A DNA stretch of 39,701 bases from Candidatus Yonathbacteria bacterium RIFOXYC2_FULL_47_9 (GCA_001825115.1 MHUY01000016.1:13792-53492); one strand, 5' to 3'. Counted from the first letter of the stretch, positions 10,849 through 39,118 are shown. Numbers and translations are program-made. Notes: generated from the letters alone by a model not told the origin.

Positions 10849-11073
10849 AAATATGGTAATATACTAGCACAACTGAATAAAGAAGTAGCCTAAACTATTG
10901 AGCAATCGGTGGCATGGCGAAAAAGTCCTGACAGACATAAAAAACCCATCATGTGGGGTTGTCTGTCAGGCCATACAGGGAAACTTGTATGAACGGCTTC
11001 GGTCGTTGACCACGTGGTGGGCTTTTTGTTGTTAAGCCACACCACAATTTTATAAAAAATAATCTTGCTGGAT

Positions 11074-18035: not shown

Positions 18036-18044
18036 ATTTTGTGT

Positions 18045-19118: not shown

Positions 19119-19125
19119 ATTGTTG

Positions 19126-20358: not shown

Positions 20359-20363
20359 ATGTG

Positions 20364-21569: not shown

Positions 21570-21573
21570 AATT

Positions 21574-23562: not shown

Positions 23563-23573
23563 AGTGATTGATA

Positions 23574-24710
23574 TTAACGATTAAAAAGTTGCATGTATTC
23601 CTTGAGGTAGAAGATCCTATCTTTCTTCAGTCCTGTTTTTTCCGTGAACAATCCAAGCTTCTGAAAGTCTCCAGCAAGAGCTGACGCCGTGGGGAAAGTA
23701 ACCGAAAGCATTGACTCAATATCCCTGATACTCACCACGGGCTGAGAGAACAACTTTTTCAAAAGATCCTTACCAAGCTTCTGCCGACGAATACTCATCC
23801 CATCCTCAATTGCTGTTTCGTACTTCTTACGCAGGTCAATTATTCTTCTAAGTGTCTCTCGCGAGTCTTTTGCCGTCTCTACAACTCCTGTGAGAAAAAA
23901 TCTCAACCAGTGCTCAATATCACCTGACTCCCTCACGCGTGAAAGTCCGTCGTAGTATTCAGGACGATTCTTTTCAAAGAAGTCTGAGAGGTAGAGTGTT
24001 GGCTTTGTGAGTATACCGAGACTTACGAGATGCAGAGTTATCATAAGCCGACCTATACGACCATTACCATCAAGAAACGGGTGGATAGTTTCAAATTGAT
24101 AGTGAGAGATAGCGATCTTAATCAAATCTGGCACGCTGATGTCTTTATTGTGCCAAAATAGCTCAAGGTCACCAAGAAGCTCTGCGAGCTCAGTGTGATG
24201 AGGTGGAATAAAGGACGCGTCGTTCAACGTCGCTCCACCAATCCAGTTTTGACTACGACGAATTTCTCCAGGCAGTTTTGTGTACCCACGAACACTAGAC
24301 AGGAGTACTCGGTGAGTATCCTTAACGAGTCGCATAGAGAGTGGCAAGGTCTCGAGTTGTCCAATTGAATAATTGATTGCCCTGACGTAGTTTTGTACTT
24401 CCTCCCAGTCATTTCTTTTTTCTGGATTGATTTCAAGTTCAGGCAGCAGTGCCTCATCAAAGCTTGTTTGAGTTCCCTCAATTTTACTTGAGACCGTCGC
24501 CTCTTTCGTAATGTGCATTTTGATGAAAAAGTCGACATCAGGAATAAGCTTTGAATATGCATTAAGTTCGCCAAGGTAGCGCATCGCATCAGCGAGCAAA
24601 ATATCGATGCGCTTGTCAGACCACTCAAAAGGAATGTTTGCAGATGATGGCTGAAAACTCTTATATCCCTCCTGTTGTTTTAGTGTCCCCGCCTTGAATT
24701 TCTTTATCAT
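23574..24710 (-). CDS. Fic family protein (AMPylase type with N-terminal inhibitory helix)
   Basis: The Fic motif is [12 protein letters not shown]. The N-terminal SSKIEG fits the (S/T)xxxE(G/N) auto-inhibition motif. It is the first gene of the R-M operon, 11 nt upstream of hsdM. Confidence 0.9.
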
Positions 24711-24912
24711 CCATCAAGCCTAGCACTTTAATATATAATATGCAAATTAAAAGTTTACCTACCATATTTTAATACGTCAGAGCCGTATTAAAGGCTGAGA
24801 ACACCCTTCTGAAGCTCTTTTTCTTGTATTTCACAAAAGCGATGACTTTGTATCAAATGTGAAATGCCCTATTAACACTATCCGAATCGATGGTGACCTC
24901 AAATGGACTAGA

Positions 24913-24950
24913 AACGAAAAATCGCCACCAGTTGGTGACGATATTTCGTT
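24913..24950. promoter_or_regulatory. 18-bp-arm inverted repeat in the intergenic region upstream of fic and ORF 25051
   Basis: AACGAAAAATCGCCACCA (24913-24930), a GT loop, then TGGTGACGATATTTCGTT (24933-24950). There are two mismatches in 18 bp. Confidence 0.4.
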
Positions 24951-25050
24951 GGCACTTGGCTACGGTTTATGATTTAACCGTGGGAGAACTAGGTCCTCAC
25001 AAATGCCTACAAACAGCATACACGATATACTTTAAAATGCACTCATTTGC

Positions 25051-25368
25051 ATGACTCTCTACGCTATAGTCCAAAAATATGCAATACTGCATAAACATAT
25101 GACTACAAAATATAGCGAAGAGTTTAAGGCCGACAATCCGGTACTCCCTCAATTACGTGAGGTGGTAGAAGAATCTGTAAAAGGCTCCAACCTCTCTCAG
25201 GAGCAAATTGATGCTATTTGTAAGAATGTTGGTGCTTTAATACTGGAAACAGTCCCAGAGCTTGTTTTTACAAACATGTCCGATTCGTTCCTTTTTGAAG
25301 GAGGCTTTGAAGAATGCACAAAACAGTCTTTCATTAACCTAAAAAATATCGGCATTGAGAAGAAATGA
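25051..25368 (+). CDS. Hypothetical protein
   Basis: A 105-aa ORF, the only plausible plus-strand gene here. No motif was recognised. Confidence 0.4.
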   Translation: MTLYAIVQKYAILHKHMTTKYSEEFKADNPVLPQLREVVEESVKGSNLSQEQIDAICKNVGALILETVPELVFTNMSDSFLFEGGFEECTKQSFINLKNIGIEKK

Positions 25369-25415
25369 AGTGGCCACCGCTTGATCCATCTTTTCTTGCA
25401 GAGAAACTCGGGGGG

Positions 25416-26306
25416 TTATTTTTGCTCCCAATACTGCGTTCCATATTCTGCTTGCAAATCACTAAAATTCACGATTGGTGCATTATATGTACTATCGGGA
25501 GGTATAAAATCAATTGACTCCATAAATACTTCTCCTGCTTTCCGTATCTCGGCGGTGTCAGCATACAGTAGGGCTATATTGTTTGTAATAGTCGAATACC
25601 AAACGTTGCTCTTAAGCCCCTCTGCAAATGTATTAAAATATGCTGGAAGAAGATACCGGGTCTTCCCTTCATCGTAAAAGACACGTCCTACTAGCGGATT
25701 TTGTTGAACGAGCTTTACTGCTGTTTCTGCAGTTGGGAACAATGCCTTTTCAAAACCTTCTTGCGCTGAATTCTTTATTGCAATCTGCATCGCCAAATCT
25801 ATCCAGGAAGTCGAGGTTGGGTGAGTATCAGGTGGCTCGCCGACCTCCTGAATAGGGCTAGACTTGACCCAGTCATACAGTTCTTGAACGAGCGTTTCTA
25901 AGGCTATGTTGTAATATTTAAATGCGTTATCTGTGTCTTTTGCTTTTTTATAGGTAAGAGCCAAACTGTTTAGAACGTCCATCCTTTCGAAGAAAGTCGT
26001 GTCATTTGAAAATCCATCAACATTTTTTTTGAGGTACTCTGTAGCTTTTCTATAGTCACCTTTTATTTGATAAATAACCCCGAGTTCAAAATTGAGGTCG
26101 TTTGAATCTGGGTATAAAGTAATCGCTTTTTTGCAAAATTCCTCGGCTCCATCTAAGTCTTCTATTTTTCTTGCAACATACGCCGAATAGTACCAATAAT
26201 CTAGGTCTTTTTGAGCTTCTTGCGTTCCAGACAAAATGTTTTGTGCAGAAGAATAGTCACCAACTCTGAGAAAAGCTTGGATTTGCTTATGTTGTTCTTC
26301 TTGCAT
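25416..26306 (-). CDS. TPR-repeat protein
   Basis: The N-terminal half contains successive 34-aa TPR-like units (W/Y-x-x-A-x-x-x-x-x-x-x-x-x-A-x-x-x-F-x-K-A, for example DLDYWYYSAYVARKIEDLDGAEEFCKKAITLYP). It lies 55 nt downstream of the GmrSD-like gene. Confidence 0.75.
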   Translation of the reverse strand: MQEEQHKQIQAFLRVGDYSSAQNILSGTQEAQKDLDYWYYSAYVARKIEDLDGAEEFCKKAITLYPDSNDLNFELGVIYQIKGDYRKATEYLKKNVDGFSNDTTFFERMDVLNSLALTYKKAKDTDNAFKYYNIALETLVQELYDWVKSSPIQEVGEPPDTHPTSTSWIDLAMQIAIKNSAQEGFEKALFPTAETAVKLVQQNPLVGRVFYDEGKTRYLLPAYFNTFAEGLKSNVWYSTITNNIALLYADTAEIRKAGEVFMESIDFIPPDSTYNAPIVNFSDLQAEYGTQYWEQK

Positions 26307-26360
26307 AATTTATTAATTGTTTGTGGGAGAATTCTTTATTCCAATTACCTCAACACATGA

Positions 26361-28502
26361 TCAAGCATCAGCATCTTGTCCCATCTGCTTCTCAAAAGCT
26401 TGCCTAACCAACCCCATTACGTAAGGTAGTTCCTCCATCTTTGAAAGACTAACTTCAACATCGCCATTACCCCAGCGACCAAGCGTTGAGACGTCTTTAC
26501 ACATTCCTTTTGGATCATCGACGTCAGCAAACTCAACATTCAATGAGAGTCGTAAGCGTTTTGCTTGAGGAACTACATCAACAAAATTAGTATCTGCTTT
26601 GTACGCAACATACAACTTCAGGAATGTTTCCGTAACACAGGGGTCGAGGGTAAGCACTTCCTTTCGGAAGGCCTCAAAAAGATTTCTCACCTCATCCCCA
26701 TACATTTCACTGCCTTTTGCCAAATAAGGATGGTCATCGATGGAGTATTCTGTCTTGATTTCAACTTTTGGATAATATTCGTCTAGGATTTCTTGAGGTA
26801 GTACCGGGGCCTGCCAAACACCAACCGCTATACCAGCAAGCTTACTAGCACGGGCTTTAATTGTGGCCTCATTCCATGATTCTAATGCCCCAAGTCCAAT
26901 ATTAAGCTTTAAGGGGCTTTGCTTTAATCCCTTCTCTGGAGCATTTGGCATGTCACGCTTATCTGCAAAAGGACGATCACTGTATTCAGAATTATATGCG
27001 GTGAGAGTTAAGTTACCGAGTGTGTGCAGCCATGTTTGTTGAACCCGTTGCCATTCTCCGCCTAGGGCATCAATCCATTCAGGTGAAAGATTTTTGTTTT
27101 GTGGCATGAGATGCTCAATAGTAAACTCATTTACTATTGCTCGTTCTTGGCGACCATGATTCTCCAGGCGACGCAGCCAGTAGCTACAACTACGGAAGTT
27201 GTAGAGATCGCGTGTTTGTAAGTCTCGGTGGAATTCTTCGTCTGTAGGAAATCGATGGAATGTTTGTAGCCCGAGAAAATGCGCTTGAATGCTTTCGAAA
27301 TACCGGTCCTTTCTCAGAGCCTTAGCAAACGATGCAAATGTCTTATTCATTGAGTTGGTTGGGATGGCACATATTGCACGGCGAAATACGTACGCCTCAA
27401 TCAACCGCACGCTCGCCAGCAAGTCTGACTTGGATAACATGCCTGCTTTGTAGTCATGGTACAACTCCAATAGAAACGGGTAGGCTACATCAACTTTTAG
27501 TTCCCTTAAGTCCTGGAAGGCAAGCTTCAGGTCGGCATCTGGCTCAGCGCCTAACGCCATTGTACAAAAATACCGTGCATAGTCACGTATATCACGAGTC
27601 AAATCTTCTACATGACTTTCATCATTAGTGGCATTTATTCTTGAAACTCGAGCATGTTCCTTGAAAGCATCGTAAACAGCATTAATATTAGGAATCTCCC
27701 TTGTTTTAACAGTAAGGTAGTGACGCATAAAAGCATCAAAGTGTGTACCATAGGCTTCCTGCCCAAAAGCAACTTCCATTGGCCTCCAGTACTGTTCATA
27801 GAGCCGAGTCTGAAGCTCTGGCTCGAGTCCCATTAAGATATAATTACGGATTAAATCAGCCTCACTCAATTCCTTACCAAGTGAGTTCATGCTCTCGAAA
27901 ATAAGCTGTGGGTTATCCTCCCCACGCTTGAGCTTGACGTCTACCATCAAAAGCTTTGCGAGTCCTTTGCAGACTACAGATAAGTCTCCTTTTTGACTTG
28001 AAATCAAGTCCTCGAACAATTTGAAGTTCTGCGTAATTCGTAGTGAATACTCGCTGGGTTGGTCTTGATTACCTATAATCGCAACAAGTGAGGTCTTATC
28101 GGTCTGCGAGAGAATTAATTTGAAGTATCGTTCTCCTTGTTCTAGTCGGTTGCATAAGTAATATTCACGTATCATCTCTGCGGAAAAACCTTCTATTAAA
28201 CTGGTCGAATCCTCTACCTTAGACAAAGCTGCCAGGAGTAACGTCACGGTAGTCAGACGCTGTTGCCCATCAATCACGAGTAATGGTTCCCACATTGCCA
28301 CATTAGCATCAGCCCTATCAATATAGACAACAGAACCAATAAAATGCACTACAATGTTGTCGTCGGCACCAGCTCGGAGGATATCATCCCAAAGCTGAAG
28401 ACATTCCTTCTCAGTCCAACAGTATGTACGCTGGTAAATAGGGATAACAAACTGAGGAGCATTCTTCAGGAAATTAAGGAGTTTTGTTTCAGATGCTTTC
28501 AT
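26361..28502 (-). CDS. GmrSD-like type IV (modification-dependent) restriction enzyme: DUF262 plus DUF1524 plus C-terminal extension
   Basis: DUF262 motifs are IPIYQRTYCW and DGQQRLTT. The DUF1524 His-Me finger block is FTIEHLMPQN...LGNLTLTAYNSEYSDRPFADK. There are an extra ~150 aa at the C-terminus. Confidence 0.85.
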   Translation of the reverse strand: MKASETKLLNFLKNAPQFVIPIYQRTYCWTEKECLQLWDDILRAGADDNIVVHFIGSVVYIDRADANVAMWEPLLVIDGQQRLTTVTLLLAALSKVEDSTSLIEGFSAEMIREYYLCNRLEQGERYFKLILSQTDKTSLVAIIGNQDQPSEYSLRITQNFKLFEDLISSQKGDLSVVCKGLAKLLMVDVKLKRGEDNPQLIFESMNSLGKELSEADLIRNYILMGLEPELQTRLYEQYWRPMEVAFGQEAYGTHFDAFMRHYLTVKTREIPNINAVYDAFKEHARVSRINATNDESHVEDLTRDIRDYARYFCTMALGAEPDADLKLAFQDLRELKVDVAYPFLLELYHDYKAGMLSKSDLLASVRLIEAYVFRRAICAIPTNSMNKTFASFAKALRKDRYFESIQAHFLGLQTFHRFPTDEEFHRDLQTRDLYNFRSCSYWLRRLENHGRQERAIVNEFTIEHLMPQNKNLSPEWIDALGGEWQRVQQTWLHTLGNLTLTAYNSEYSDRPFADKRDMPNAPEKGLKQSPLKLNIGLGALESWNEATIKARASKLAGIAVGVWQAPVLPQEILDEYYPKVEIKTEYSIDDHPYLAKGSEMYGDEVRNLFEAFRKEVLTLDPCVTETFLKLYVAYKADTNFVDVVPQAKRLRLSLNVEFADVDDPKGMCKDVSTLGRWGNGDVEVSLSKMEELPYVMGLVRQAFEKQMGQDADA

Positions 28503-29477: not shown

Positions 29478-30326
29478 TTACTCACAAAATACCACCTCCT
29501 CTGTTGGTATCCCTAAATTCTCTGCAAACCACATGCGAGCAGCTTCTTGGTCGCCAAGAGCGTCGATGAGTTTGTTTTGAAGGGCAAGAGTTCCTGCCAT
29601 GGATGAACCGTCAGCAAGTTTTGCAACTTGTTCAATAGGTAGATTCCTGTTTTCTGCAACTTCTTTTACAAACTGCTCATGAAAGATTTTTAGATCCCTT
29701 TCAATTAACGCTCGTTCTGCTTGAGTAAGTGACTTATCAGGATTGCCATAATCCTTAAATTGAGCGGATGCCAATGGCACATACCGCAGACCATCCTTAA
29801 TGTTTTTTGCCGTGTTGTCCAAGTAAGACATCGTTATGCCGATACTGCCGACATCAGAGAATGCTGAGGCAATGATTGTGTCTGCTCCTGTTGCCGCAAG
29901 ATACGCACCAGAGGCCCCCGTCTCACGAATAAGCGCAACAGTTGGTAGCGATAGCCCTTTGATTTCATTCGCAATAATCTCCGAAGCAACCGGCACCCCA
30001 CCAGCGGAATCAATGGGTACAAGAACACCATGGATATTAGGGTCGTTTTCAGCCATACGAAGGGCAGCGAGCACATCGTCTGGGTTAGTAGATGGTGGCG
30101 GCGTAGCTCCACTACCATCCTCATTGGCACCACGATAAGGGATAATGTCTCCGACTATCGGTATCACTGCAATATTGCACGAGCCATCACTAACTGCATT
30201 TATCGCGTTATAGCCACTCCATTCGTCGTGCCAATTACCAAAAACCCATAGCCCGCTGGCAAAAACAAGAGTGCCCGCAGCGGACCATAATGCAATAGTT
30301 CTGATTTCTTGCTGGAGGGTTTTCAT
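29478..30326 (-). CDS. sppA: Signal peptide peptidase SppA (S49 family, 36K type)
   Basis: It has an N-terminal TM helix and S49 blocks VLVPIDSAGG and ETGASGAYLAATGADTIIA. The ORF-track start at 30374 is TTG. The ATG at 30326 (MKTLQQEIRTIALW) is preferred. Confidence 0.85.
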   Translation of the reverse strand: MKTLQQEIRTIALWSAAGTLVFASGLWVFGNWHDEWSGYNAINAVSDGSCNIAVIPIVGDIIPYRGANEDGSGATPPPSTNPDDVLAALRMAENDPNIHGVLVPIDSAGGVPVASEIIANEIKGLSLPTVALIRETGASGAYLAATGADTIIASAFSDVGSIGITMSYLDNTAKNIKDGLRYVPLASAQFKDYGNPDKSLTQAERALIERDLKIFHEQFVKEVAENRNLPIEQVAKLADGSSMAGTLALQNKLIDALGDQEAARMWFAENLGIPTEEVVFCE

Positions 30327-30370
30327 GCGAGGATTATACCATAATACTCGCTGTCTATTTACTATACTCG

Positions 30371-30475
30371 TCAATTATCACCCTTTGAACTTCATCCCAG
30401 GTGCGGAGCCAGCAAAATCACCCATATTTATATGGGTGATTTTCTTTACCACACTTAGGAGATCGAACCTACGGC
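30371..30475. repeat. tRNA-Asn 3'-half-like palindromic intergenic repeat, copy A
   Basis: The copy is 105 nt and has 9 mismatches to copy B by hand alignment. Its core is GAACTTCATCCCAGGTGCGGAGC (30387-30409). The central hairpin is AAAATCACCCATA/TATGGGTGATTTT (30414-30443). On the minus strand, 30461-30473 reads CGTAGGTTCGATC, identical to tRNA-Asn 7403-7415. Confidence 0.8.
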
Positions 30476-30488
30476 CGAATACTTTTCC

Positions 30489-31235
30489 CTACTTTGAATA
30501 TATAGCTAATTTTTGAGAAAAATCTTCTTCGAGTTCTTCAATACTCTTTCCTGTATGCTTTTGGTATTTCTTACGTATGGTCTCAGCGGTTTCTTCGCGA
30601 GTACATTCTGTATATAATTTCTTAAATACTTCTAATCCAAAAGTTTCTATAAGGTATTTAATCCATTCGCCCGCAAGCGCATAAAAATAAACCGCACCAT
30701 CCTGAGGAGTATCCAGCCAATCCTTTTCGGTAAGTATTTTTGATGGACTTAATTCATAGCCCTTAGCAATACCTTCTCTGACACACTCATCATGTGGCTC
30801 GCCATACCAATTGTGTCCCACCATATACTCTGCCAACCCCTCCTGTAGAAAATTAATTGAGATTCCCCAAGGAAGTGTCAGCAGATGAGTATCTTCATGT
30901 TCACCAATAGGCTTATCCTGTAGTGTGTATAAAACGTGAATACAAAATTCACCATAAATTGATTGTGCAAACCAATCATCTCCCATTAGTTCCGTTTTGA
31001 GTTCTGGGGTTGGATAAAAATAATATGTTATTTTCTGACCTAAGACAGGTACCTTGAGCTCGGTCACTATTTTTTGGAATGCTTGCTCTTGACGTTCTTT
31101 AATATGTTCGATATCTTTTTCTGCTTCAGAACCCTTAGTATAATAGAAAATATAATGTTCGGTTTCGACAGTAAGCCACCCCGAATACTCCTGAAATGTG
31201 TGGGAATAAGTTGGAAGATATTGTTTGTATTTCAT
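30489..31235 (-). CDS. Peptidase-MA-like zinc metalloprotease-domain protein
   Basis: An HExxH motif (GEHEDTHLL) is followed about 20 aa later by EGLAEY. That is the gluzincin arrangement seen in Peptidase_MA_2-type proteins. Confidence 0.6.
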   Translation of the reverse strand: MKYKQYLPTYSHTFQEYSGWLTVETEHYIFYYTKGSEAEKDIEHIKERQEQAFQKIVTELKVPVLGQKITYYFYPTPELKTELMGDDWFAQSIYGEFCIHVLYTLQDKPIGEHEDTHLLTLPWGISINFLQEGLAEYMVGHNWYGEPHDECVREGIAKGYELSPSKILTEKDWLDTPQDGAVYFYALAGEWIKYLIETFGLEVFKKLYTECTREETAETIRKKYQKHTGKSIEELEEDFSQKLAIYSK

Positions 31236-31280
31236 AAAAGGAAAGGTGGCTCTTAGAAGTTCAAGCCCCCCTTGACACTA

Positions 31281-31308
31281 TTGACATTAGCAAAGGGGTT
31301 GCTATAAT
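31281..31308 (+). promoter_or_regulatory. Near-consensus sigma70 promoter pointing antisense into the NYN gene
   Basis: TTGACA (31281-31286, with a second TTGACA at 31272-31277), a 16-nt spacer, then TGcTATAAT (hexamer 31303-31308). Confidence 0.45.
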
Positions 31309-31333
31309 ATGCATATCACTACGAAAGAGACCC

Positions 31334-31852
31334 TTATGCAGATACGTCTGCATCGGGGGCTTTTTCTTTTTGTCTCTCCGTAGAAAACTTATGGTAATGT
31401 TCATTCAAAAAAGTTATCTCTGTATTCTTATTTTTTAACAAGATAGAGCATTTCTTTTCGTCAGGAGAAACAACGCAATCAATCGCTTTGCTATTTTGCA
31501 AAAACTCCACCAAGCACCCGAAGTCACCATCTCCTGTTACCAAGATGCAGGAAGTAAATGCTTTTGTATAAAAATCTGATACGGTTTTAAGAACGAGCTC
31601 GGCATCACAATTACCTTTTATTGTTCCTCCAAATGATACCGTTTGCTTGAAGACAAGAATGAAGCCACATTCCTGGAGATGTTCATAGAATGATGTCCTG
31701 CTGGGCACAAGACCGATAAAAAGGTAGACGTTCGCAGGGCTGTATTTTTGACGGAGCCACCCACGAAACTTTTTATAATCTATTTCAAAACCTAGCTCTT
31801 TTGCAGAGCGATAAAGATTATTCCCATCGATGTAGATGTTTACTTTATTCAT
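31334..31852 (-). CDS. NYN-domain (LabA/DUF88-like, PIN-related) protein
   Basis: VNIYIDGNNLY near the N-terminus and LVTGDGDFGCLVEFL are the characteristic acidic NYN motifs. Confidence 0.8.
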   Translation of the reverse strand: MNKVNIYIDGNNLYRSAKELGFEIDYKKFRGWLRQKYSPANVYLFIGLVPSRTSFYEHLQECGFILVFKQTVSFGGTIKGNCDAELVLKTVSDFYTKAFTSCILVTGDGDFGCLVEFLQNSKAIDCVVSPDEKKCSILLKNKNTEITFLNEHYHKFSTERQKEKAPDADVSA

Positions 31853-32053: not shown

Positions 32054-32662
32054 ATGAAATCAGGAACACTATTGCTTACCTCGATAGGACTATCTTCGCC
32101 AAATGTACTCAGTAGATTTCTTGAGATAGTTGGGGACACAAAGAATAAGCAGGTGGCGATTATCACGACTGCAGCCGAGGGGAAAGAAGTCAATAAGTAT
32201 TCTCAACTAGCCCACAAGCAGTTTGTAGACTTAGGCTTTTCAGGCGTAGATTTTGTTGACCTAGAAGCAGATCCGACGAAAGACCTTTCCCCATACGGTG
32301 TTATTTATGTTTGTGGTGGTAACACTTTTAAACTCCTTAAGTTTGCTCTAACAGCAAACTTTAAAAATTCCGTTGAATCATTGCTAAAAATGGGAGGTGT
32401 ATATATTGGCGTAAGCGCTGGAAGTATCATTGTTGGTCCATCGGTGAAAATTGCTGATGAAGTTCAGCCCGATCCCAACGAGGTTGGTATTAGTGATTTT
32501 TCAGGGCTTGGTATAATCAAAGAAATAGTCCTGCCACATTATTCTCCTGAGATTGAAGAGCAGGTAAAGATATTCGAAAATAAACACAATGTTATCATTG
32601 ATAGAATAGACAATTCCCAAGCTATTTTGGTGCAAGAAGGATATAAAACAATTATTGAATAA
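32054..32662 (+). CDS. Peptidase S51 (peptidase E-like) family protein
   Basis: VCGGNTFKLL and the nucleophile elbow GVSAGSII, plus a downstream LPHY, fit the S51 Ser-His layout. Confidence 0.75.
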   Translation: MKSGTLLLTSIGLSSPNVLSRFLEIVGDTKNKQVAIITTAAEGKEVNKYSQLAHKQFVDLGFSGVDFVDLEADPTKDLSPYGVIYVCGGNTFKLLKFALTANFKNSVESLLKMGGVYIGVSAGSIIVGPSVKIADEVQPDPNEVGISDFSGLGIIKEIVLPHYSPEIEEQVKIFENKHNVIIDRIDNSQAILVQEGYKTIIE

Positions 32663-32666: not shown

Positions 32667-32694
32667 ATAGAGGCATACAAAAGTATGCCTCTAT
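32667..32694. terminator. Bidirectional hairpin between convergent genes
   Basis: ATAGAGGCATAC, an AAAA loop, then GTATGCCTCTAT form a perfect 12-bp stem. It is preceded by an A-run and contains the stop codon of ORF 32691..33473. Confidence 0.6.
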
Positions 32695-33473
32695 AAAGCT
32701 AACAACTTACTAATTTCACTGATAATCACACTCACTTCTTCCATATCTTTTGGTGTGAACCGTGAAAGACGGAGAGCGAGCTTATATACAGGTAAACTGG
32801 AAGACTCAAGGAGGTGTGCCTGCTCAGCAAGCGATCTAAATCCTCGGAAATAGCAACGACTCCGAGCAAACGCGAGCCTGGTCAGCGAAGCCGTGATATC
32901 TGAGATGCATAAATTAAACTCAATCGAGCCCACACTTTCGTGAAGTTTCCCGAGTGTATTTAATTTCTGTTTAATCTCTTCTACACATAGTTCGCTGATT
33001 CCCTGTGAAAGCGATAGTGGGTATGGGATAATCAACTCCTTAATTTTGGAATGAATCCTTTTTGGATCATGCAGAGATTCTGCCGTGGCAAGATCCCCAC
33101 ACAACGCTTCAGGAACCCAATATCCAGTAGCCCAAGAACGATGTTGTCCATCGAGATCTTTCCTTTCTGTCCATTTTTGAATTTGTCCGACAAGCACAGA
33201 GGAGTTGCATACCGCAACCCCACCGCAACCTGTCGGTAACTCAAAACGAACACTATCATCACACACGGATAAATTTCCATTAGGCAAACAGTCTTTCAAG
33301 ATAGACTCGATAGTGGGGCCATATTTGTAAATATCCCCACCATCACATCCCACCAATAGATCAACGTGATTTTTTGGCAAATTCCTGTTTAACCCAACTA
33401 GCAAAAGTATTTCCATTCCTTGCATGTTGCGTAGTGCATGAGATAGCTCCGAAACAATCTGGCCTTTTTTCAT
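32691..33473 (-). CDS. Unknown protein, last gene of the AlaRS-like/radical SAM operon (nucleotidyltransferase fold only a weak guess)
   Basis: A 260-aa ORF. Its start overlaps the upstream stop as ATGA, preceded by AAAGGAG. LLLVGLNRNLPKNHVDLLVGCDGGD vaguely resembles an hG[GS]...D-x-D nucleotidyltransferase segment, but the motif is degenerate. Confidence 0.6.
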   Translation of the reverse strand: MKKGQIVSELSHALRNMQGMEILLLVGLNRNLPKNHVDLLVGCDGGDIYKYGPTIESILKDCLPNGNLSVCDDSVRFELPTGCGGVAVCNSSVLVGQIQKWTERKDLDGQHRSWATGYWVPEALCGDLATAESLHDPKRIHSKIKELIIPYPLSLSQGISELCVEEIKQKLNTLGKLHESVGSIEFNLCISDITASLTRLAFARSRCYFRGFRSLAEQAHLLESSSLPVYKLALRLSRFTPKDMEEVSVIISEISKLLAL

Positions 33474-34600
33474 ACCGACTCCTTTCTGTCAGAACATTCA
33501 TCAAGCTCAATGAGAACCGCTGAATATCCAAACGTAGATGCAAGATATTTGATATCATGTTCGTTAAGCAATCCTGTTTTTTGAGATTTGAGTTTTATGT
33601 ACTCCCTCCTCCCTCGTACAAGACTTTGTTCGAACTTTGATACCTCTTTCGTAAGTACCTGCAGAACGGTGTTCCGAGTAGCTTCTACTGAAACCCAGTA
33701 ATTGATTGATATCACACAGAACTCCTTGAATGGCAGCGAAATCTGCTGGCAAGTTACGTACGCTTCCCGAATGATTTTTCGGAGCACATATTCTGCCGCC
33801 TTATTGCCTGGGACAAGCCCTTGAGAAACCAACAAAGTTGACGCCTTACCTAAATCAGCAAGCCGACATACTTTTGTGTAGCTATGGTTTGAAGAACATT
33901 TCTCAAGAGATTGCACAACCTGTTTCCATAAGGAATTTTCATAGTTGTTGCTACAGTGTTCAATTACCGTAACAATGCGATCAATACTTGCCCCAGAATC
34001 TGCTGCGATTTTCTCCATTGGAGAACAAAAAAGAGTGTTGCCCTGGAATTGTGTAAAAACTAAATTCCAGAGCTCAGTCAATTTCATTGTTTCTGGATTT
34101 TGCCACACAATTTCTGTTCGCAATCCGCACAGTGTTTTAGAAGGAGTAAAAGCCACATTCTCGTTATTCGAGATTGTTTCAACCCCTAACCCATCCCAAA
34201 CTTTTTGTGATACATCATCTTGCGGATGAACCGTTGCTAAAAGGTTGCGCGAATTTATCCCCGCGCAATCAGTTAAAAATTGCCAAGCACTTTCAATCAT
34301 CAAGCTCTTTACCGCCTGCTCGTCATTTTCGTAAAGTGAAAAATGGCCAAGCATGTCGAACGCAAGATGATGTCTTCCAGAAATACCAATCTTTTCCCAT
34401 CCATCAGTTCTCAAGCAGGTCTGAATCGAGGATATTCGTGGAACGTTCGCGGTTAACCCGCGAGCTATCGCGTCCTCGAATACAACCCCGCCTGAGATAT
34501 TAAACAGAAGTTTCTGGTTGAGACTAATGATTGGGTCACTTTCTTTCCATCGGAAACCGTAGTTTCCAAAATGGTTTTTGATATCATTTCGCAATTTCAT
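33470..34600 (-). CDS. Stand-alone AlaRS-like protein (aminoacylation plus tRNA-recognition region only; no editing or C-Ala domains)
   Basis: Block-by-block resemblance to AlaRS: GRHHLAFDMLGHFSL (RHHTFFEMLGNFSF), LTELWNLVFTQFQ (IEIWNIVFMQFN), ADSGASIDRIVTVIEHCSNNYE ([22 protein letters not shown]) and AAEYVLRKIIREA (RGYVLRRIIRRA). The ATG at 34600 gives MKLRNDIKNHFGNYGF. Confidence 0.8.
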   Translation of the reverse strand: MKLRNDIKNHFGNYGFRWKESDPIISLNQKLLFNISGGVVFEDAIARGLTANVPRISSIQTCLRTDGWEKIGISGRHHLAFDMLGHFSLYENDEQAVKSLMIESAWQFLTDCAGINSRNLLATVHPQDDVSQKVWDGLGVETISNNENVAFTPSKTLCGLRTEIVWQNPETMKLTELWNLVFTQFQGNTLFCSPMEKIAADSGASIDRIVTVIEHCSNNYENSLWKQVVQSLEKCSSNHSYTKVCRLADLGKASTLLVSQGLVPGNKAAEYVLRKIIREAYVTCQQISLPFKEFCVISINYWVSVEATRNTVLQVLTKEVSKFEQSLVRGRREYIKLKSQKTGLLNEHDIKYLASTFGYSAVLIELDECSDRKESV

Positions 34601-35823
34601 GGAGAACCTCCTTTCGCTAGATGTTTGAATACCGTCTGTCTGATGGCATAAGTGAATGTGCTCATATCTGGATGAGTGACAAGTCCATAATTTTGATCCC
34701 ACCTGACAACGTGAGCAGAAATACCCAAATTGTCTAGGATGATCTGCGCGTGTTCAGTTGTCATGCTACAAGAGGATTTTTGAGCACAGATTTGTCGCTG
34801 AGCGAGGGGGCAATGAGATGACTCACATTCCTCTCGTGCAAAGATTTGGACCGAAGTAATACTTGGTAATCCGAGCATCTTTGTTAATGCGCATGAAGAC
34901 TTGAGGTACACGGGGACTCCAGGGAAGTGCTCCTCGCTTAAAGAAAGAATGGTATCCACTAAATCTTTAGGCAAGGACTTCACATTGTCGTCACGAGGAA
35001 TGTTTGGCATAGGGAGCTTATGAATTTCCACAAGACCATTTTCTATGCCTTCAGTCCAACGTAACCCTCCGGGGACAATCATGTCAATAACGTTTCCATA
35101 ATGTTTCTTAACCCACAGCATCATCATCTCAATTCTGTCCGGATTTCCACTCCACTCTGGAACAATCGGGCGCATATACCATGCAATAATAACTCCCGCT
35201 TCCTTTGCTTCTTCGACACTAAGAAAGCGATTATTACGAACAGGCTCAATCGTGTCAGGATTATCTGCCCAACATATCGAAATCATGAGCCCGCGAGTTG
35301 CTCTGGTAATTCTTGCCAGATCGAGTTTCCTCCCTTTAGGGATTCCACCCTTAGTGACAATCCAGAAAGGGTTTTTGAATCCCCTCCTCACGAACGATTC
35401 CATAATCTCGAAAGTGCTGTCAGTCACCTGTCCTGGGGCAAATGGCTCCGTACTCGCTGTCCCAATGCTGATCACCGTTTCATCAACAATGAAAAACGGA
35501 TGCTTCACTAATTCATCAATGATCTGATCAACAGTAAAAGAATTGCGCCGCTGAGGCTTCCTCGGCATCATTCCGTGTTCGACAAGATCTTGATGCGTGC
35601 CCTGCACATGACAATATCTGCATTGCCATGCACAACCAGCCCACAAGTCTATACTCAGTGAGTTGTTGGACACACTTACCGACGAAAGAGGATGTTTGCA
35701 GTCGGGAACAAGAACTCCGTATGTATATTCACGCAAAGAGAACTCTTGCCCAGTAGTCATTCCCTTAATTTGAACGATGGGCTCCGAATTTGCAGCCGTA
35801 AAGTAGTCCCGTTTAGATTTCAT
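34597..35823 (-). CDS. Radical SAM protein, SPL/COG1533-like
   Basis: The CxxxCxxC motif sits in SIDLWAGCAWQCRYCHV, the context typical of the spore-photoproduct-lyase-like radical SAM group. The protein is 408 aa with a C-terminal Cys cluster (CESSHCPLAQRQICAQKSSC). Confidence 0.75.
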   Translation of the reverse strand: MKSKRDYFTAANSEPIVQIKGMTTGQEFSLREYTYGVLVPDCKHPLSSVSVSNNSLSIDLWAGCAWQCRYCHVQGTHQDLVEHGMMPRKPQRRNSFTVDQIIDELVKHPFFIVDETVISIGTASTEPFAPGQVTDSTFEIMESFVRRGFKNPFWIVTKGGIPKGRKLDLARITRATRGLMISICWADNPDTIEPVRNNRFLSVEEAKEAGVIIAWYMRPIVPEWSGNPDRIEMMMLWVKKHYGNVIDMIVPGGLRWTEGIENGLVEIHKLPMPNIPRDDNVKSLPKDLVDTILSLSEEHFPGVPVYLKSSCALTKMLGLPSITSVQIFAREECESSHCPLAQRQICAQKSSCSMTTEHAQIILDNLGISAHVVRWDQNYGLVTHPDMSTFTYAIRQTVFKHLAKGGSP

Positions 35824-36569
35824 ATGGCTGCTCCTTTCAAGTAGTTGATATTCTGAACTATTTGGTCTGTAGTTGTCATGCCGACAACTACAGATGTTTC
35901 TAGTTTCAGAGTACGCGTTAAGATTTCCATCGCCGATACGTCAGCTTGTCGTTCGTCGCTCATCAAAATCTTTCCTTGCAGAAAGAGACTTCTGAGTAAT
36001 ACTTCCTTCCCTAACCTCTTTAGCTGTGGGAGCTGATAAACTATCCACTGCTCGTGAAGATTGTACGGTGCTTCAATTACATCAATATGTTCAAGAACAC
36101 TTTCATCAATGTAATCAGAAAAACCATTGGGAAGAGAGATGCCAACTTTCCTAACGACACCAATTTCTTTTAGCTCATTTAGGGCTTTAAGAATATGGGT
36201 AGCATTTTTTTGCCATAATGGTATCCAGTTGTGTAGCAATAAGATATCAATCGAATTTCGCCCGAGCCTACTTAAAGACTGCTCTGCGCTTCGATGAATG
36301 TTGTCACGTGAGTAACATTTATCGATAGGCATTTTGGTGTCGGGCTTCAAGATTGCAGGGATCTTTGTGAGGATCACCGCTTCTTGCGACAGACATGCTC
36401 CGAGTATTTTCTCGACATTTCCTTGCCCATAGACTGCTGCTGTGTCAAACTTGTAGATTCCGTGAGATAGTGCGAGCTGAATCAAATTCTCAATCTGTGT
36501 ATTCGTAAGATCTTTGAACTGCCCAGATAATTGCCATGTGCCAAAATAGAGGCGATCGTTCCATTTCAT
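35820..36569 (-). CDS. Aldo/keto reductase family protein (short form)
   Basis: FGTWQLSG...FDTAAVYGQGNVEKILG carries the Asp and Tyr of the tetrad. LTKIP carries the Lys and IDILLLHNW the His. AAGGAGG lies 7 nt upstream of the ATG. Confidence 0.85.
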   Translation of the reverse strand: MKWNDRLYFGTWQLSGQFKDLTNTQIENLIQLALSHGIYKFDTAAVYGQGNVEKILGACLSQEAVILTKIPAILKPDTKMPIDKCYSRDNIHRSAEQSLSRLGRNSIDILLLHNWIPLWQKNATHILKALNELKEIGVVRKVGISLPNGFSDYIDESVLEHIDVIEAPYNLHEQWIVYQLPQLKRLGKEVLLRSLFLQGKILMSDERQADVSAMEILTRTLKLETSVVVGMTTTDQIVQNINYLKGAAI

Positions 36570-36733
36570 GATATTTCCTCCTTGTAATGTCTAAAGTTGT
36601 AAATGAACAAATGGTTCGTCTGCCATAAATCTACAACATACATCGCCGCTCGTCAAGCTTTGACTAAAATCGCAATGTGTATTACTGTGCAGTAAGTCTC
36701 GATCTTTAAAATCTACGATAAGGAGTATATGAA

Positions 36734-37657
36734 ATGAAAATTATTGCCGTGAGTTCTTCTACGTATTCACAAATTGAAGCAAGTCTATGGAAAGATGACA
36801 GATTTCAGCCGGTCGGTGACCACAAGGTAAAGATAGAGCTGGATGATGGCTCAATCGTGGAAGCAGGTGTTTTTGAGGTAACGAAGGGTCACAAAAAAGA
36901 ATTTCATGCATGCATATCCACGCAGGCCGGCTGTAAATTCAAATGCTCGTTTTGTTCTTCTGGTGCTAGGGGTTTTGAGAGAGATTTATCTTGTGATGAA
37001 ATCCTCGAAGAAATTTCAATTCTGGCAAAGTTGGCAAAGATAGAATCATTTGATCGCCTGATGTATATGGGAATAGGTGAGCCGATGGATAATTTTGACA
37101 ATGTTGTTGGAAGCATACAACAACTTCTTGAAATTAATCCCGCGTATGTTGGCAGAATTTCTTTAGCAACAATTGGTATACTGCCAAAGTTGCATAAATT
37201 AGCATTGCTCAAGCTTCCCTTAAGAAGGATCTGGGTGTCTCTGCATGCAGCCTCTGACGAAAAAAGGTTGCAGATTATGCCCATCAGCAAAGTATATAAA
37301 GCTAAGGAACTTGTAGTCGCAGCAAAAGCCTTTGCTGAAGTCTCTGGTACAGAAACATGGCTTAACTATATGATCTTTCAAGGCTTCAATGATTCTCTGG
37401 AAGATGCTTCGAAGTTGGTTGAGTTGCTTAAAGACACCGAAGACGATTTGTCTGTGGTAATCACTGTTCCCAATGGCGAGAGGTCTGGCTATGTTGGGGG
37501 CAGTTTGGAAGATGTGCATAGATTCCAAAATTATCTCATAGAGCTGGGAATGAAGAATCGTACAGAGCACTTTTTTTCTGTCGGACGCTCTTCAAACGCG
37601 GGCTGTGGGGAATTCGTTTTCTACCCCAGCAGTACAAAAATAGCTGTTTGTAGTTAA
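36734..37657 (+). CDS. RlmN/Cfr-family radical SAM methyl synthase, N-terminally truncated
   Basis: HACISTQAGCKFKCSFCSSGARGFERDLSCDEI aligns to [33 protein letters not shown]. Other matching blocks are MGIGEPMDNFDNVV, ISLATIGILPKL, VSLHAASDE and a C-terminal NAGCGEF (AACGQL). AAGGAG lies 8 nt upstream of the ATG. Confidence 0.85.
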   Translation: MKIIAVSSSTYSQIEASLWKDDRFQPVGDHKVKIELDDGSIVEAGVFEVTKGHKKEFHACISTQAGCKFKCSFCSSGARGFERDLSCDEILEEISILAKLAKIESFDRLMYMGIGEPMDNFDNVVGSIQQLLEINPAYVGRISLATIGILPKLHKLALLKLPLRRIWVSLHAASDEKRLQIMPISKVYKAKELVVAAKAFAEVSGTETWLNYMIFQGFNDSLEDASKLVELLKDTEDDLSVVITVPNGERSGYVGGSLEDVHRFQNYLIELGMKNRTEHFFSVGRSSNAGCGEFVFYPSSTKIAVCS

Positions 37658-38039: not shown

Positions 38040-38495
38040 ATGGAAATTAGAGACTATAATAAAAAGGACAAAGAAGCGGTGCAAAATATTTTTACCAAGT
38101 ACTGGACTGACGAGGAATTCTTGAGCGAGCTCTCAGAAAATATAGATAGTGGCAAGATGCATTTTTATGTTGCAGAAAAAGATGGAGAAGTGATTGGTGT
38201 TGCTGGGTTTAGAGAAGCACCAGAATACCTTCATGATTATGCGGAAACAAAAAATCCCGCAGAGTTGTATGTAGTAGCTTCTCAATTACAAAATGAAGGT
38301 ATTGGGAGCATGCTTGTACAAAAAGTAATTGATGAAGCAAAGAATTTATATTTTACAGAAATAGAATGCTATAGCCCTGAAACCCATAGTAGCTCATGGA
38401 AATTCTATGAGAAACTTGGGTTTACGAGACACGGAATTATCAAGGATCCTGACGATGGATACCCCGGAATGCTCTGGAGAAAAATTATTTTATAG
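38040..38495 (+). CDS. GNAT family N-acetyltransferase
   Basis: The protein is 151 aa. The acetyl-CoA binding motif A is LQNEGIGSMLVQKVIDEA, and FYEKLGF is present near the C-terminus. Confidence 0.85.
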   Translation: MEIRDYNKKDKEAVQNIFTKYWTDEEFLSELSENIDSGKMHFYVAEKDGEVIGVAGFREAPEYLHDYAETKNPAELYVVASQLQNEGIGSMLVQKVIDEAKNLYFTEIECYSPETHSSSWKFYEKLGFTRHGIIKDPDDGYPGMLWRKIIL

Positions 38496-38671: not shown

Positions 38672-39118
38672 ATGAAAGACATCACCCTCCATGCCAAGTG
38701 GCTTATCAAGGCTCCTCTAACTGAGGTGTTTAACGTAATGACTGACTTTGAAAAATGGCCTGACTATTTTCCAAAAGTTGCGGAATCTATACAAGTCGTG
38801 AAGCGCGACGGAAATAATTTAGAAATGATTGCGACCGTAAAATCGTTTGGTAAAAAGTTTCCCGTAAAAATGAAATACCAAATCCTCCCAGGGAAAGGGT
38901 ACATTTCCGATAATGAAAACCCTGAATTTGGAACTTCTGGCCACGAAGAATTTTTACTCTCTGAACACCCCGAAGGAACGATAATCGATTACACGTATCA
39001 AGTTGCCATTCATCGACGCTTACTTCGCATAATTGCACGTCCACTCATTGGTTGGTTTTCCATGAAGTACTGGCAGAAAGCTGTCATAGATGAACTAAGA
39101 AAAAGACTCGAGAAATAA
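38672..39118 (+). CDS. SRPBCC (START/polyketide cyclase-like) family protein
   Basis: The protein is 148 aa. APLTEVFNVMTDFEKWPDYFP is the typical N-terminal beta-alpha signature of this fold family. Confidence 0.7.
   Translation: MKDITLHAKWLIKAPLTEVFNVMTDFEKWPDYFPKVAESIQVVKRDGNNLEMIATVKSFGKKFPVKMKYQILPGKGYISDNENPEFGTSGHEEFLLSEHPEGTIIDYTYQVAIHRRLLRIIARPLIGWFSMKYWQKAVIDELRKRLEK

Follow-up and report, generated by a model that had tools for sequence, protein, structure and literature searches.

Alanyl-tRNA synthetase (AlaRS) is known for a single architecture that is kept throughout life, and, to our knowledge, no paralog of its catalytic core with a different function had been described before AcmF in 2024. 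Truncated paralogs of other aminoacyl-tRNA synthetases (aaRSs) have established roles: MshC, GluQRS (YadB), and PoxA (EpmA), derived from CysRS, GluRS, and LysRS, use an aminoacyl-adenylate to modify a sugar amine, a modified nucleoside, and a protein lysine, respectively. GluQRS acts on queuosine, and PoxA acts on EF-P with the radical-SAM (rSAM) partner YjeK. The amino acid:[carrier protein] (aa:CP) ligases are also paralogs of an aaRS catalytic domain, here that of SerRS; they supply secondary pathways with an activated small amino acid and require a carrier protein. MccF, a Peptidase_S66 enzyme, cleaves aminoacyl-adenylate mimics in microcin C-type immunity. AcmF, from ascamycin biosynthesis in Streptomyces sp. 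80H647, is a stand-alone AlaRS-like protein forming a clade of its own, and is encoded in this nucleoside-antibiotic pathway with a second, more canonical AlaRS (AcmD) and a hydrolase (AcmE) by which the aminoacyl group is cleaved off (PMC12945691). It has reportedly lost most ATP-binding residues, carries N219Q and D232E, and uses Ala-tRNA (PMC12945691).

The window analysed here is a stretch of 39,701 nucleotides from Candidatus Yonathbacteria bacterium RIFOXYC2_FULL_47_9 (MHUY01000016.1). Its minus strand encodes AlaL (33470..34600), a protein of 376 amino acids that was assigned as a stand-alone AlaRS aminoacylation and tRNA-recognition core from PF01411, TIGR00344, PDB AlaRS matches, and alignment. 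The preliminary description had placed the reading frame at exactly these positions, and the peptides that it quoted (LLFNISGGVVFED, CLRTDGWEKIGISGRHHLAFDMLGHF, LWNLVFTQF, ADSGAS, and ASTFGYS) were all found in the translation. AlaL starts at an ATG (MKLRND...) that overlaps the stop codon of the upstream gene by 4 nt, and all homologues start at the equivalent ATG. An alternative GTG start at 34702 would lengthen AlaL and run into the upstream gene. In the published literature on AlaRS-like paralogs, PF01411, clusters combining MccF or an aa:CP ligase with rSAM genes, and biosynthetic gene clusters of Patescibacteria, we found nothing on the AlaL family or its gene cassette, apart from the AcmF review.

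AlaL matched Pfam PF01411 (tRNA-synt_2c) at profile positions 5–401 of 552 with 157.8 bits (E 4.9e-46), above the gathering threshold of 30.3 bits, and Aquifex AlaRS (1riq) was found among the PDB sequence matches with an E value of 1.5e-25. The score against the alaS equivalog model TIGR00344 was 159.3 bits (model positions 3–398 of 847), which is about a third of the curated cutoff of 457 bits. Unlike canonical alaS products, AlaL was only approximately 25% identical to AlaRS and was encoded in a non-translational operon; neither the editing domain (tRNA_SAD, PF07973) nor the C-Ala domain was detected by profile searches, as had been noted before. In a neighbour-joining tree, AlaL formed a separate long-branch clade apart from AlaRS. 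The protein stops approximately 10 residues past the YDTYGF-equivalent block, in agreement with the preliminary description, which had estimated roughly the first 440 residues of AlaRS; the end lies near E. coli AlaRS residue 412. These comparisons put the homology of AlaL to AlaRS far beyond chance, and indicate that AlaL is a genuine AlaRS catalytic core, standing alone and strongly diverged.

Three simpler identities were rejected. A pseudogene or chance ORF was ruled out by the dN/dS of 0.15, indicating purifying selection, and by the homologues, the family comprising at least 113 protein clusters; the other genes of the operon are under purifying selection as well. A housekeeping or split alaS was dismissed as the main reading because the score was far under the cutoff, AlaL always occurred within a cassette, and the same family was present inside the same cassette in metagenome-assembled genomes (MAGs) of Bacilli and Clostridia, which makes a split alaS unlikely. 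AlaX, the free-standing AlaRS editing domain, does not apply, as AlaL is a catalytic core only and gave no PF07973 match.

Residues were compared in E. coli AlaRS numbering by MAFFT alignment, with the E. coli sequence checked against PDB 3HXU. AlaL shares with canonical AlaRS the fold, class II motifs 2 and 3, the helical tRNA-recognition domain, and R69, N212, V214, D235, and G237, which were invariant in 26 family members (29–66% identical to the window protein). H86, H87, F90, M92, E183, E209, W211, and R242 were also kept and invariant in these members, and R85 was nearly so (K in 4 of the 26). The ATP/adenylate-site residues of motifs 2 and 3 (R69, F90, E183, E209, and R242) are thus all invariant; in AlaL's own numbering, N179, D201, and R208 correspond to N212, D235, and R242, and these are invariant together with E163 and E176. 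Judging from these positions, the adenylation machinery of AlaL is intact.

The substrate pocket of E. coli AlaRS is formed by the six residues M43, R69, W170, N212, D235, and G237 (review, PMC12467997). Four of them are kept in AlaL, but M43 is replaced by an invariant Gly and W170 by Thr, Phe, His, or Ser. The earlier view that the pocket is retained accordingly holds for R69, N212, V214, D235, and G237 and fails at M43 and W170; because of these two changes, the earlier choice of Ala, Ser, or Gly as the substrate is insecure. Several loops of canonical AlaRS are deleted in AlaL. The replacement of GGKHNDLENVG by DGWEKIGISG had been read as a mark of divergence, but half of a small sample of canonical AlaRSs likewise lacked GGKH in this motif-2 loop, and its deletion is therefore not diagnostic. 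The retained tRNA-recognition domain carries a basic YVLRKxIRE helix. In AlaRS, N303 and D400 (Met = residue 1) are the residues recognizing G3:U70. The N303 equivalent was kept in 21 of the 26 family members, and the D400 equivalent was Ser in 18 of them, Asp in one, and Ser in AlaL itself. Since the domain, its basic helix, and mostly N303 are kept, an RNA acceptor or donor may be conceivable, which counts against the small-molecule role favoured below.

The operon runs from an aldo-keto reductase (AKR) through an rSAM gene to AlaL and ends with a gene for an ANT(4')-like protein of nucleotidyltransferase (NTase) fold. The AKR/rSAM, rSAM/AlaL, and AlaL/NTase-like junctions are 4-nt overlaps, so that the genes are translationally coupled. 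The short AKR (249 amino acids; 35820..36569, minus strand) was recognized by PF00248 (E 3.7e-30), had L-galactose dehydrogenase, IolS, and Gsp69 as its best PDB relatives, and was co-conserved across the cassette loci. The rSAM enzyme (408 amino acids; 34597..35823, minus strand) was assigned from weak Radical_SAM and Rv2578c/PA0069 matches, alignments, and an AF2 model. It has the CxxxCxxC motif at C64/C68/C71 and further invariant cysteines at C184, C311, C333, C338, and C346, which possibly bind an auxiliary cluster. It is the best-conserved protein of the cassette, being approximately 80% identical across candidate phyla, and the window protein is 100% identical to a Candidatus Yonathbacteria protein. 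Its model (pLDDT 92) gave only generic rSAM folds as PDB Foldseek matches (TM ≤ 0.40), so no function could be transferred; searches of the PDB by sequence gave no usable match for either the rSAM or the NTase-like family.

The NTase-like protein (260 amino acids; 32691..33473, minus strand) was identified by AF2 modelling with Foldseek and by alignment. The window protein had no Pfam match, and its relatives showed weak DUF4037 and NTP_transf_2 matches. The model (pLDDT 87) was most similar to kanamycin nucleotidyltransferase (TM approximately 0.6, E 8e-6), and predicts a small-molecule O-nucleotidyltransferase fold. Of the DxD motif, the patescibacterial proteins retain a single Asp; those of Firmicutes have the canonical form (GS...DxD) and precede the AKR as an N-terminal fusion. 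Convergent to the operon lies a gene for a PepE-like serine peptidase of Peptidase_S51 (32054..32662, plus strand; PF03575, E 1.4e-26), whose PDB relatives are peptidase E and which is co-conserved with the cassette. A G+C-rich palindromic hairpin with T-runs (32667..32694), found by consensus scan only between the two convergent stop codons, is likely a bidirectional terminator. The divergent intergenic region upstream of the AKR gene (36570..36733) contains a promoter-like site at 36656–36628 on the minus strand, a weak match likewise found by consensus scan only.

This gene context, absent from the preliminary description, is the main evidence for the function of AlaL. Because AlaL is encoded in a conserved uncharacterized operon with an rSAM enzyme, a reductase, an NTase-like protein, and a serine peptidase, a small-molecule role is likeliest: the amino acid activated by AlaL most likely enters a small-molecule pathway and not protein synthesis. 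We accordingly favour, with somewhat less than even confidence, the reading of AlaL as an ATP-dependent amino-acid ligase of an uncharacterized small-molecule pathway. The earlier proposal of a neofunctionalized, amino-acid-activating paralog that may use another acceptor fits the evidence, apart from the choice of amino acid; it is supported by the long-branch clade, the dN/dS, the retained adenylate-site residues, and the conserved non-translational operon.

The cassette was identified in more than 40 loci, which belong to Parcubacteria, to Saccharibacteria, and to MAGs of gut Bacilli and Clostridia. In the sister cassettes of Thermoactinomyces sp. DSM 45892 and Priestia megaterium, the NTase-like, AKR, rSAM, and S51 genes occur without AlaL and are joined by genes for a SerRS-like aa:CP ligase and its carrier protein, an HxxxDG condensation-like protein, an ATP-grasp ligase, and an MFS pump. 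Here the aa:CP ligase fills a role equivalent to that of AlaL; in loci L091 and L092, such a ligase and carrier-protein module stands in place of AlaL. AlaL differs from these ligases in its AlaRS origin, and no carrier-protein (PP-binding) ORF was found in the window cassette or near AlaL. In at least 16 metagenome loci, a class-I LysRS-type gene is translationally coupled to the AKR gene. The AlaL slot is therefore swappable, and the core of the cassette is constant. In addition, NUDIX, MazG, and FomD-like nucleotide hydrolases sporadically adjoin the cassette.

The homology, the conserved residues, the operon, the co-occurrence of its genes, and the swappable aaRS-type modules are observed; the chemistry, the type of amino acid, and the acceptor proposed in the following are inferred. 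AlaL would be the amino-acid-activating component of the AKR, rSAM, ANT-like NTase, and S51-or-S66 cassette. It would first form an aminoacyl-adenylate from ATP and a small α-amino acid, as suggested by the invariant motif-2, motif-3, and Mg/ATP residues. A pathway intermediate, and not tRNA-Ala for translation, would then receive the aminoacyl group on one of its hydroxyls or amines, a transfer suggested by the operon structure and by the module swapping in sister cassettes; the intermediate would be built by the NTase-like, AKR, and rSAM enzymes and is probably a nucleotide- or sugar-type small molecule. Finally, the co-conserved Ser-His-Glu hydrolase might target this aminoacyl linkage too, in a step serving immunity, unmasking, or transfer. 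The intact adenylation residues, the sub-cutoff alaS score, the separate clade, the coupled operon, the conserved cassette, and the swappable slot all count for a small-molecule ligase, as do the NTase-like fold, the sporadic nucleotide hydrolases, and the AcmD/AcmF/AcmE precedent. MshC, GluQRS, and PoxA differ in having no sequence relationship to AlaL and in their gene contexts.

Many cassettes include a second, more canonical AlaRS fragment, Ala430, which is 39% identical to E. coli AlaRS and keeps all six pocket residues. This arrangement bears on a mechanism like that of AcmF, in which AlaL would take Ala-tRNA-Ala from the housekeeping AlaRS or from the AcmD-like Ala430 and transfer the alanyl group to a nucleoside-like acceptor bound in the former ATP site. 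AlaL has the architecture of AcmF, with only the aminoacylation and tRNA-recognition domains (PMC12945691), the pairing of Ala430 with the divergent AlaL mirrors that of AcmD with AcmF, a hydrolase is co-encoded like AcmE, and the tRNA-recognition helix is conserved. However, the ATP- and alanine-activating residues lost from AcmF (N to Q and D to E) are all kept in AlaL, in which N212, D235, the motif-3 Arg, and the Mg/ATP glutamates are invariant, and D400, the presumed G3:U70 determinant, is Ser. The loop spacings also differ: R93–F104 of AcmF spans 11 residues versus 17 in AlaL, and Q219–E232 spans 13 versus 22, which suggests, with AcmF compared by its published residue numbers only, that AlaL is not an AcmF orthologue. 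Furthermore, Ala430 is missing from the window-type and Firmicutes-type cassettes, no remnant of it was detected in the window by tblastn, and the neighbours of AlaL (rSAM, AKR, ANT-like NTase, and S51/S66) and its hosts (Patescibacteria and gut Firmicutes) show no relation to those of the ascamycin cluster. We consider an AcmF-like transfer from aminoacyl-tRNA quite unlikely.

In the Firmicutes cassettes, S51 is replaced by a Peptidase_S66 protein of the MccF/LdcA family, encoded directly beside AlaL. In a reading as self-resistance or dedicated tRNA charging, the cassette product would be an aminoacyl-adenylate-like aaRS inhibitor, with AlaL as an insensitive minimal AlaRS charging tRNA-Ala and S51/S66 as an MccF-like immunity hydrolase. 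One Clostridia lineage keeps only S66 and AlaL, and another has a truncated rSAM gene; the pair thus persists where the core of rSAM, AKR, and NTase genes has been lost or truncated, and looks more like an immunity or resistance pair than an orphaned biosynthetic enzyme. The changes at M43 and W170 could shut out an inhibitor. In some sister cassettes, the class-I LysRS-type protein looks full length, with an anticodon-binding domain, which fits tRNA charging better than small-molecule ligation. N-terminal AlaRS fragments of approximately 441–461 residues can charge tRNA-Ala and minihelices. The Clostridia pattern and the LysRS-type protein count against the ligase reading, but self-resistance or dedicated charging has difficulties of its own: AlaL is shorter than the characterized active fragments, approximately 25% identical to AlaRS, and lacks D400, and near-identical cores would need to yield inhibitors that target unrelated enzymes, some of class I and some of class II. 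With AlaL serving resistance only, the window-type and Firmicutes-type cassettes would have no other aminoacyl-installing enzyme, and two AlaRS-type genes in one cassette would be redundant. Unlike the microcin C case, the window has S51 in place of S66 and encodes neither an MccB-like adenylyltransferase nor a precursor peptide. Self-resistance or dedicated tRNA charging is judged unlikely.

Divergent from the operon, the window encodes an RlmN/Cfr-like rSAM methyl-synthase paralog without the N-terminal domain (307 amino acids; 36734..37657, plus strand), which scored 156 bits against TIGR00048 (cutoff 290 bits; profile positions 79–341 of 355). It fills the slot held by Ala430 in other Parcubacteria and is at the same position in a 91%-identical relative (L090). 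No RlmN-like gene adjoined the cassette in loci L001–L027, and in metagenome locus L156 a weakly RlmN-like sequence (28% identity) lies approximately 1.8 kb downstream of the rSAM gene; membership of this gene in the cassette is uncertain. Elsewhere, a solitary rSAM gene lies next to genes for a tRNA U5-methyltransferase and Dus, which counts against the ligase reading, and MiaA and MiaB-like genes are near the cassette in L121. Such recurrent RNA-modification genes, together with the established roles of truncated aaRS paralogs, would suit a GluQRS- or PoxA-like reaction, in which an amino acid is attached to a protein or to a modified nucleoside of tRNA or rRNA, at a site prepared by the rSAM, AKR, and NTase-like proteins. 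The high conservation of the cassette in reduced candidate phyla radiation (CPR) genomes also agrees with this idea and is atypical for a sporadic antibiotic cluster. However, in genomes this small, housekeeping RNA genes are often close by in any case, the cassette occupies variable, island-like positions, and the carrier protein, condensation-like enzyme, ATP-grasp, and MFS of the cultured Firmicutes are a typical small-molecule pathway set. In addition, ARAGORN analysis of 21 loci found no cassette-linked tRNA or other RNA gene that could be a dedicated acceptor, and Rfam matches in the window were limited to tRNA-Asn and LOOT, both distant from the cassette. Modification of a macromolecule appears improbable.

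The cassette is horizontally mobile. In the window it lies downstream of tRNA-Asn and a serine recombinase and beside type I restriction-modification (R-M), GmrSD, Fic, and NYN genes; no repeat of the tRNA-Asn 3' end marking an island boundary was found within the window. In Thermoactinomyces, the cassette has prophage genes on one side and a type I R-M system on the other, and a distant rSAM relative on Labrenzia plasmids is accompanied by exonuclease, AAA, and HD genes. An anti-phage system, making a modified nucleotide or depleting a translation component, might be proposed from this company. Most other loci, however, are outside defence islands, PADLOC-DB 2.0 gave no match for AlaL, rSAM, AKR, the NTase-like protein, or S51, and no relatives were found on viral contigs. 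The plasmid database yielded only distant rSAM relatives (23–29% identity) in unrelated contexts. A defence function seems highly improbable.

The small-molecule ligase remains our preferred reading. A more specific version of it, somewhat doubtful to us, is a modular pathway of an aaRS core, a Ser-hydrolase, and the rSAM, AKR, and NTase enzymes. In this pathway, the adenylate-forming AlaRS core would aminoacylate a non-tRNA acceptor, namely an intermediate resembling a nucleotide or a sugar, and the product would be a metabolite of aminoacyl-nucleoside type or an aaRS-inhibitor mimic, with AlaRS-, class-I-LysRS-, and SerRS-derived modules being interchangeable. Since the core cassette, with a carrier-protein module replacing AlaL, occurs in the cultivable Thermoactinomyces and Priestia, its core chemistry is directly testable there.

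The prevailing view of CPR bacteria credits them with next to no secondary metabolism. If the ligase reading is true, these ultra-small bacteria would have a conserved pathway, possibly for an antibiotic or pro-drug, the repertoire of aaRS-derived ligases would be wider, and an uncharacterized rSAM subfamily would gain a functional context. If the modular pathway also holds, it would be the first defined specialized-metabolite pathway widespread in Patescibacteria, and AlaL would be the first AlaRS-derived ATP-dependent small-molecule ligase.

The preliminary description had placed a stand-alone AlaRS catalytic fragment at 33470–34600 of the window, and an ORF of 376 aa with the N-terminus MKLRND, termed AlaL, was present there on the minus strand. 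AlaL matched Pfam tRNA-synt_2c (PF01411; E-value 4.9e-46, profile positions 5–401 of 552) and bacterial AlaRS crystal structures (E-values 1e-25 to 1e-24). Its score against the NCBI alaS equivalog model was 159 bits, below the cutoff of 457, with only the first 398 of the 847 model positions aligned. All the peptide strings quoted in that description were found in the translation, and domain profile searches of the protein detected neither the editing domain (tRNA_SAD) nor the C-Ala domain, as had been stated. An alternative GTG start at 34702 would intrude 100 nt into the upstream gene; the ATG start is common to all AlaL homologues and overlaps the stop codon of the upstream gene by 4 nt.

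The active-site residues were compared in an alignment of E. coli AlaRS, whose N-terminal sequence was rebuilt and verified against PDB 3HXU, with 11 canonical AlaRSs from the relative loci, 26 AlaL members, and nine members of a second paralog family. R69, H86, H87, F90, M92, E183, E209, W211, N212, V214, D235, G237, and R242 (E. coli numbering) were invariant among the 26 AlaL members. By this alignment the whole adenylate site is retained in the family, and AlaL keeps every residue required for binding ATP and an amino acid through its α-amino and carboxyl groups. M43 was replaced by an invariant Gly, W170 by Thr, Phe, His, or Ser, and both T236 and G239 by Ser; the D400 equivalent is also Ser. 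Several surface loops were deleted, the C-terminal end lay near E. coli residue 412, and the helical tRNA-recognition domain was kept, including its basic helix. The substrate-binding residues of E. coli AlaRS are reported to be M43, R69, W170, N212, D235, and G237 (PMC12467997). The retained pocket residues named in the preliminary description were confirmed (R69, N212, V214, D235, and G237); M43 and W170, which it did not mention, are changed. With a pocket conserved only in part, AlaL should not be presumed specific for Ala, Ser, or Gly.

Among 5.8 billion proteins searched, at least 113 clusters of AlaL-type proteins of approximately 370–390 aa were identified, most of them unnamed and a few annotated as "alanine--tRNA ligase-related protein" or "hypothetical". 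Their sources were mainly Patescibacteria (Uhr-, Buchanan-, Nomura-, and Paceibacteria, and Saccharibacteria), with a branch at approximately 40% identity in gut Bacilli, Erysipelotrichaceae, and Clostridia MAGs. AlaL showed 25.6% identity with E. coli AlaRS and formed a separate long-branch clade in a neighbour-joining tree; its pairwise dN/dS with a 91%-identical relative was 0.15. The earlier proposal of a neofunctionalised paralog is supported and, through the gene context, much enriched. No description of the AlaL family or its cassette was found in full-text literature searches.

The gene context is the key evidence on AlaL. Four genes on the minus strand, joined by 4-nt start/stop overlaps, form an operon encoding an aldo-keto reductase (AKR; 35820–36569, 249 aa), a radical-SAM enzyme (rSAM; 34597–35823, 408 aa), AlaL, and an unannotated NTase-like protein (32691–33473, 260 aa). 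A predicted hairpin at the operon end is common to the operon and the convergent Peptidase_S51 gene (32054–32662, plus strand, 202 aa). The rSAM, the most conserved member of the cassette (approximately 80% identity across Parcubacteria), possesses a CxxxCxxC motif and five further invariant cysteines in alignments. Its AF2 model was confident (pLDDT 92), and its PDB matches were generic radical-SAM folds only (TM ≤ 0.40). The rSAM sequence was 100% identical to a protein of Candidatus Yonathbacteria bacterium RIFOXYC2_FULL_47_9, a match that establishes the lineage of origin. The window copy of the NTase-like protein had no Pfam match; its AF2 model (pLDDT 87) resembled kanamycin nucleotidyltransferase ANT(4′) with a TM of approximately 0.6, and its Firmicutes homologues have the GS...DxD motif in canonical form and make up the N-terminal part of a fusion with the AKR. 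The AKR relatives are sugar-dehydrogenase-like.

The same cassette was found throughout 27 loci in which ORFs were mapped by BLAST and in another 61 obtained by unbiased scanning of metagenomes with an rSAM profile. Judged from these sequences, AlaL and the core of the cassette are transcribed together and inherited together. In type A (Patescibacteria and locus L098), the AKR, rSAM, AlaL, NTase-like, and S51 genes are usually adjoined, in variable orientation, by a second stand-alone AlaRS fragment of approximately 430 aa, Ala430, which accompanies AlaL in most Patescibacteria cassettes (e.g., L001 6586–7878 and L098 12072–13331, and many other loci). Ala430 scored 345 bits against alaS, was 39% identical to E. 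coli AlaRS, and kept all six pocket residues but carried H87G, E91R, and F96W in motif 2. In the window and its 91%-identical relative L090, this slot is occupied by a divergently oriented RlmN/Cfr-like radical-SAM paralog (36734–37657; N-terminal domain absent, score of 156 bits for a cutoff of 290), which may confer resistance, have an accessory role, or just be a neighbour. Downstream of it, genes for a GNAT acetyltransferase (38040–38495) and an SRPBCC/polyketide-cyclase-like protein (38672–39118) were not conserved with the cassette elsewhere.

The gut-Firmicutes version consists of an NTase-AKR fusion, rSAM, Peptidase_S66 (MccF/LdcA family), and AlaL. In type B (at least 16 loci, including L121 7992–12293, L115, L118, L122–L125, L140, and L142), rSAM, AKR, and S51, with or without the NTase-like gene, occur without AlaL, and the gene in translational coupling with AKR is here one of class-I LysRS type. 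Some of these LysRS-type genes appeared full length with an anticodon-binding domain and others matched the catalytic half only; their KMSKS region is unusual (AMHSS or AIHGS). AlaL is also absent from the cultured Thermoactinomyces sp. DSM 45892 (L091 8415–17300, FNPL01000003.1) and Priestia megaterium (L092), in which a further module adjoins the core of NTase-like, AKR, rSAM, and S51 genes. This module encodes an 82-aa carrier protein, an amino acid:[carrier protein] ligase of the SerRS-like kind, a condensation-like protein with the motif HMLSDG, an MFS transporter, and an ATP-grasp ligase whose relatives are Ddl, DdaF, and BacD; Priestia has a MazG gene in addition. Nucleotide hydrolases (NUDIX, MazG, and FomD-like DUF402) sporadically flank the cassettes. 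These variants indicated that the core is almost always accompanied by an aaRS-derived amino-acid-activating enzyme whose aaRS family is interchangeable.

In a Clostridia MAG (L009/L024 9014–11149), only Peptidase_S66 and AlaL were left, and in another MAG (L022 8579–11134) they accompany a 150-aa C-terminal rSAM remnant; hence, the S66-AlaL pair outlives the core. This is the pattern expected of retained immunity or resistance genes, and AlaL as a resistance or dedicated tRNA-charging enzyme is a substantial alternative. The rSAM gene, in turn, can stand alone beside tRNA-modification genes: a solitary homologue (56% identity; L099 1814–4492) directly follows a tRNA (uracil-5)-methyltransferase-like gene near a Dus gene. 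A role of AlaL in modifying tRNA, rRNA, or protein is likewise a substantial alternative. On a plasmid of Streptomyces sp. NBC_00723 (L097 5529–9385), a distant rSAM relative (23% identity, covering 79% of its length) is preceded by a MurA-like enolpyruvyl transferase gene and followed by a NUDIX gene, an order resembling, in our view, the NikO/NikJ-type logic seen for nucleoside antibiotics.

A minor alternative is that the cassette is a defence system. In the window, the cassette is part of an island-like region rich in defence genes, downstream of tRNA-Asn and a serine recombinase; however, no PADLOC match and no viral relatives were found. The large serine recombinase gene (7417–9111, minus strand) immediately follows tRNA-Asn(GTT), its end overlapping the tRNA 3′ end, and G+C falls downstream from approximately 0.50 to 0.35–0.44. 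The segment 7357–9111 resembles the boundary of an integrated island; no repeat of the tRNA-Asn 3′ end was found within the window. A LOOT RNA (Rfam RF03000, 86 bits; 10887–11007) is located a short way upstream of an ORF for a trypsin-like protease (11065–12384). The defence-type block (15054–28502) comprises a type I R-M system (hsdR 15054–18035, hsdS 19126–20358, and hsdM 21574–23562) with an inserted DUF2130 gene (20364–21620), Fic (23574–24710) and GmrSD (26361–28502) genes, and a TPR protein gene. Between this block and the cassette (29478–31852) are genes for an S49 peptidase, an NYN-domain RNase, and a 248-aa protein that has an HEDTH (HExxH-like) motif and matched no family.

Here, we propose that AlaL forms an aminoacyl-adenylate and would hand the aminoacyl group to a core-made intermediate rather than provide translation with Ala-tRNA. 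Four features suggest that this intermediate or product is a small molecule linked to a nucleotide or sugar: the ANT-like fold of the NTase-like protein, its fusion to the AKR, the sugar-dehydrogenase-like relatives of the AKR, and the nucleotide hydrolases. The variant with carrier-protein, condensation, ATP-grasp, and MFS genes suggests a product that is exported and is aminoacylated or peptidyl. The probable target of the S51 or S66 hydrolase is the same aminoacyl bond. By analogy, the closest precedent is ascamycin biosynthesis, in which AcmD (a canonical-like AlaRS), AcmF (a cut-down AlaRS-like transferase), and AcmE (a hydrolase) between them attach alanine to a nucleoside sulfamate and take it off again (PMC12945691). 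AcmF and AlaL have the same domain architecture, but AcmF has lost the ATP and alanine residues whereas AlaL has not; AlaL may therefore work like the AcmF type, yet it is not a member. An AcmF-like aminoacyl-tRNA-dependent transferase is a third substantial alternative. All three were kept because of the S66-AlaL remnants, the solitary rSAM genes, the persisting tRNA-recognition domain of AlaL, the resemblance of some type B partners to complete LysRS, and the striking conservation of the cassette in very small genomes, which limit confidence in the proposed transfer to a core-made intermediate.

The AlaL finding is real, and AlaL would join a kind already known, the paralogs of aaRS catalytic cores that serve in pathways outside translation. 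The Thermoactinomyces and Priestia versions of the core are a cultivable, experimentally tractable form of the pathway; the core pathway is testable in such Firmicutes, and AlaL itself via heterologous expression.
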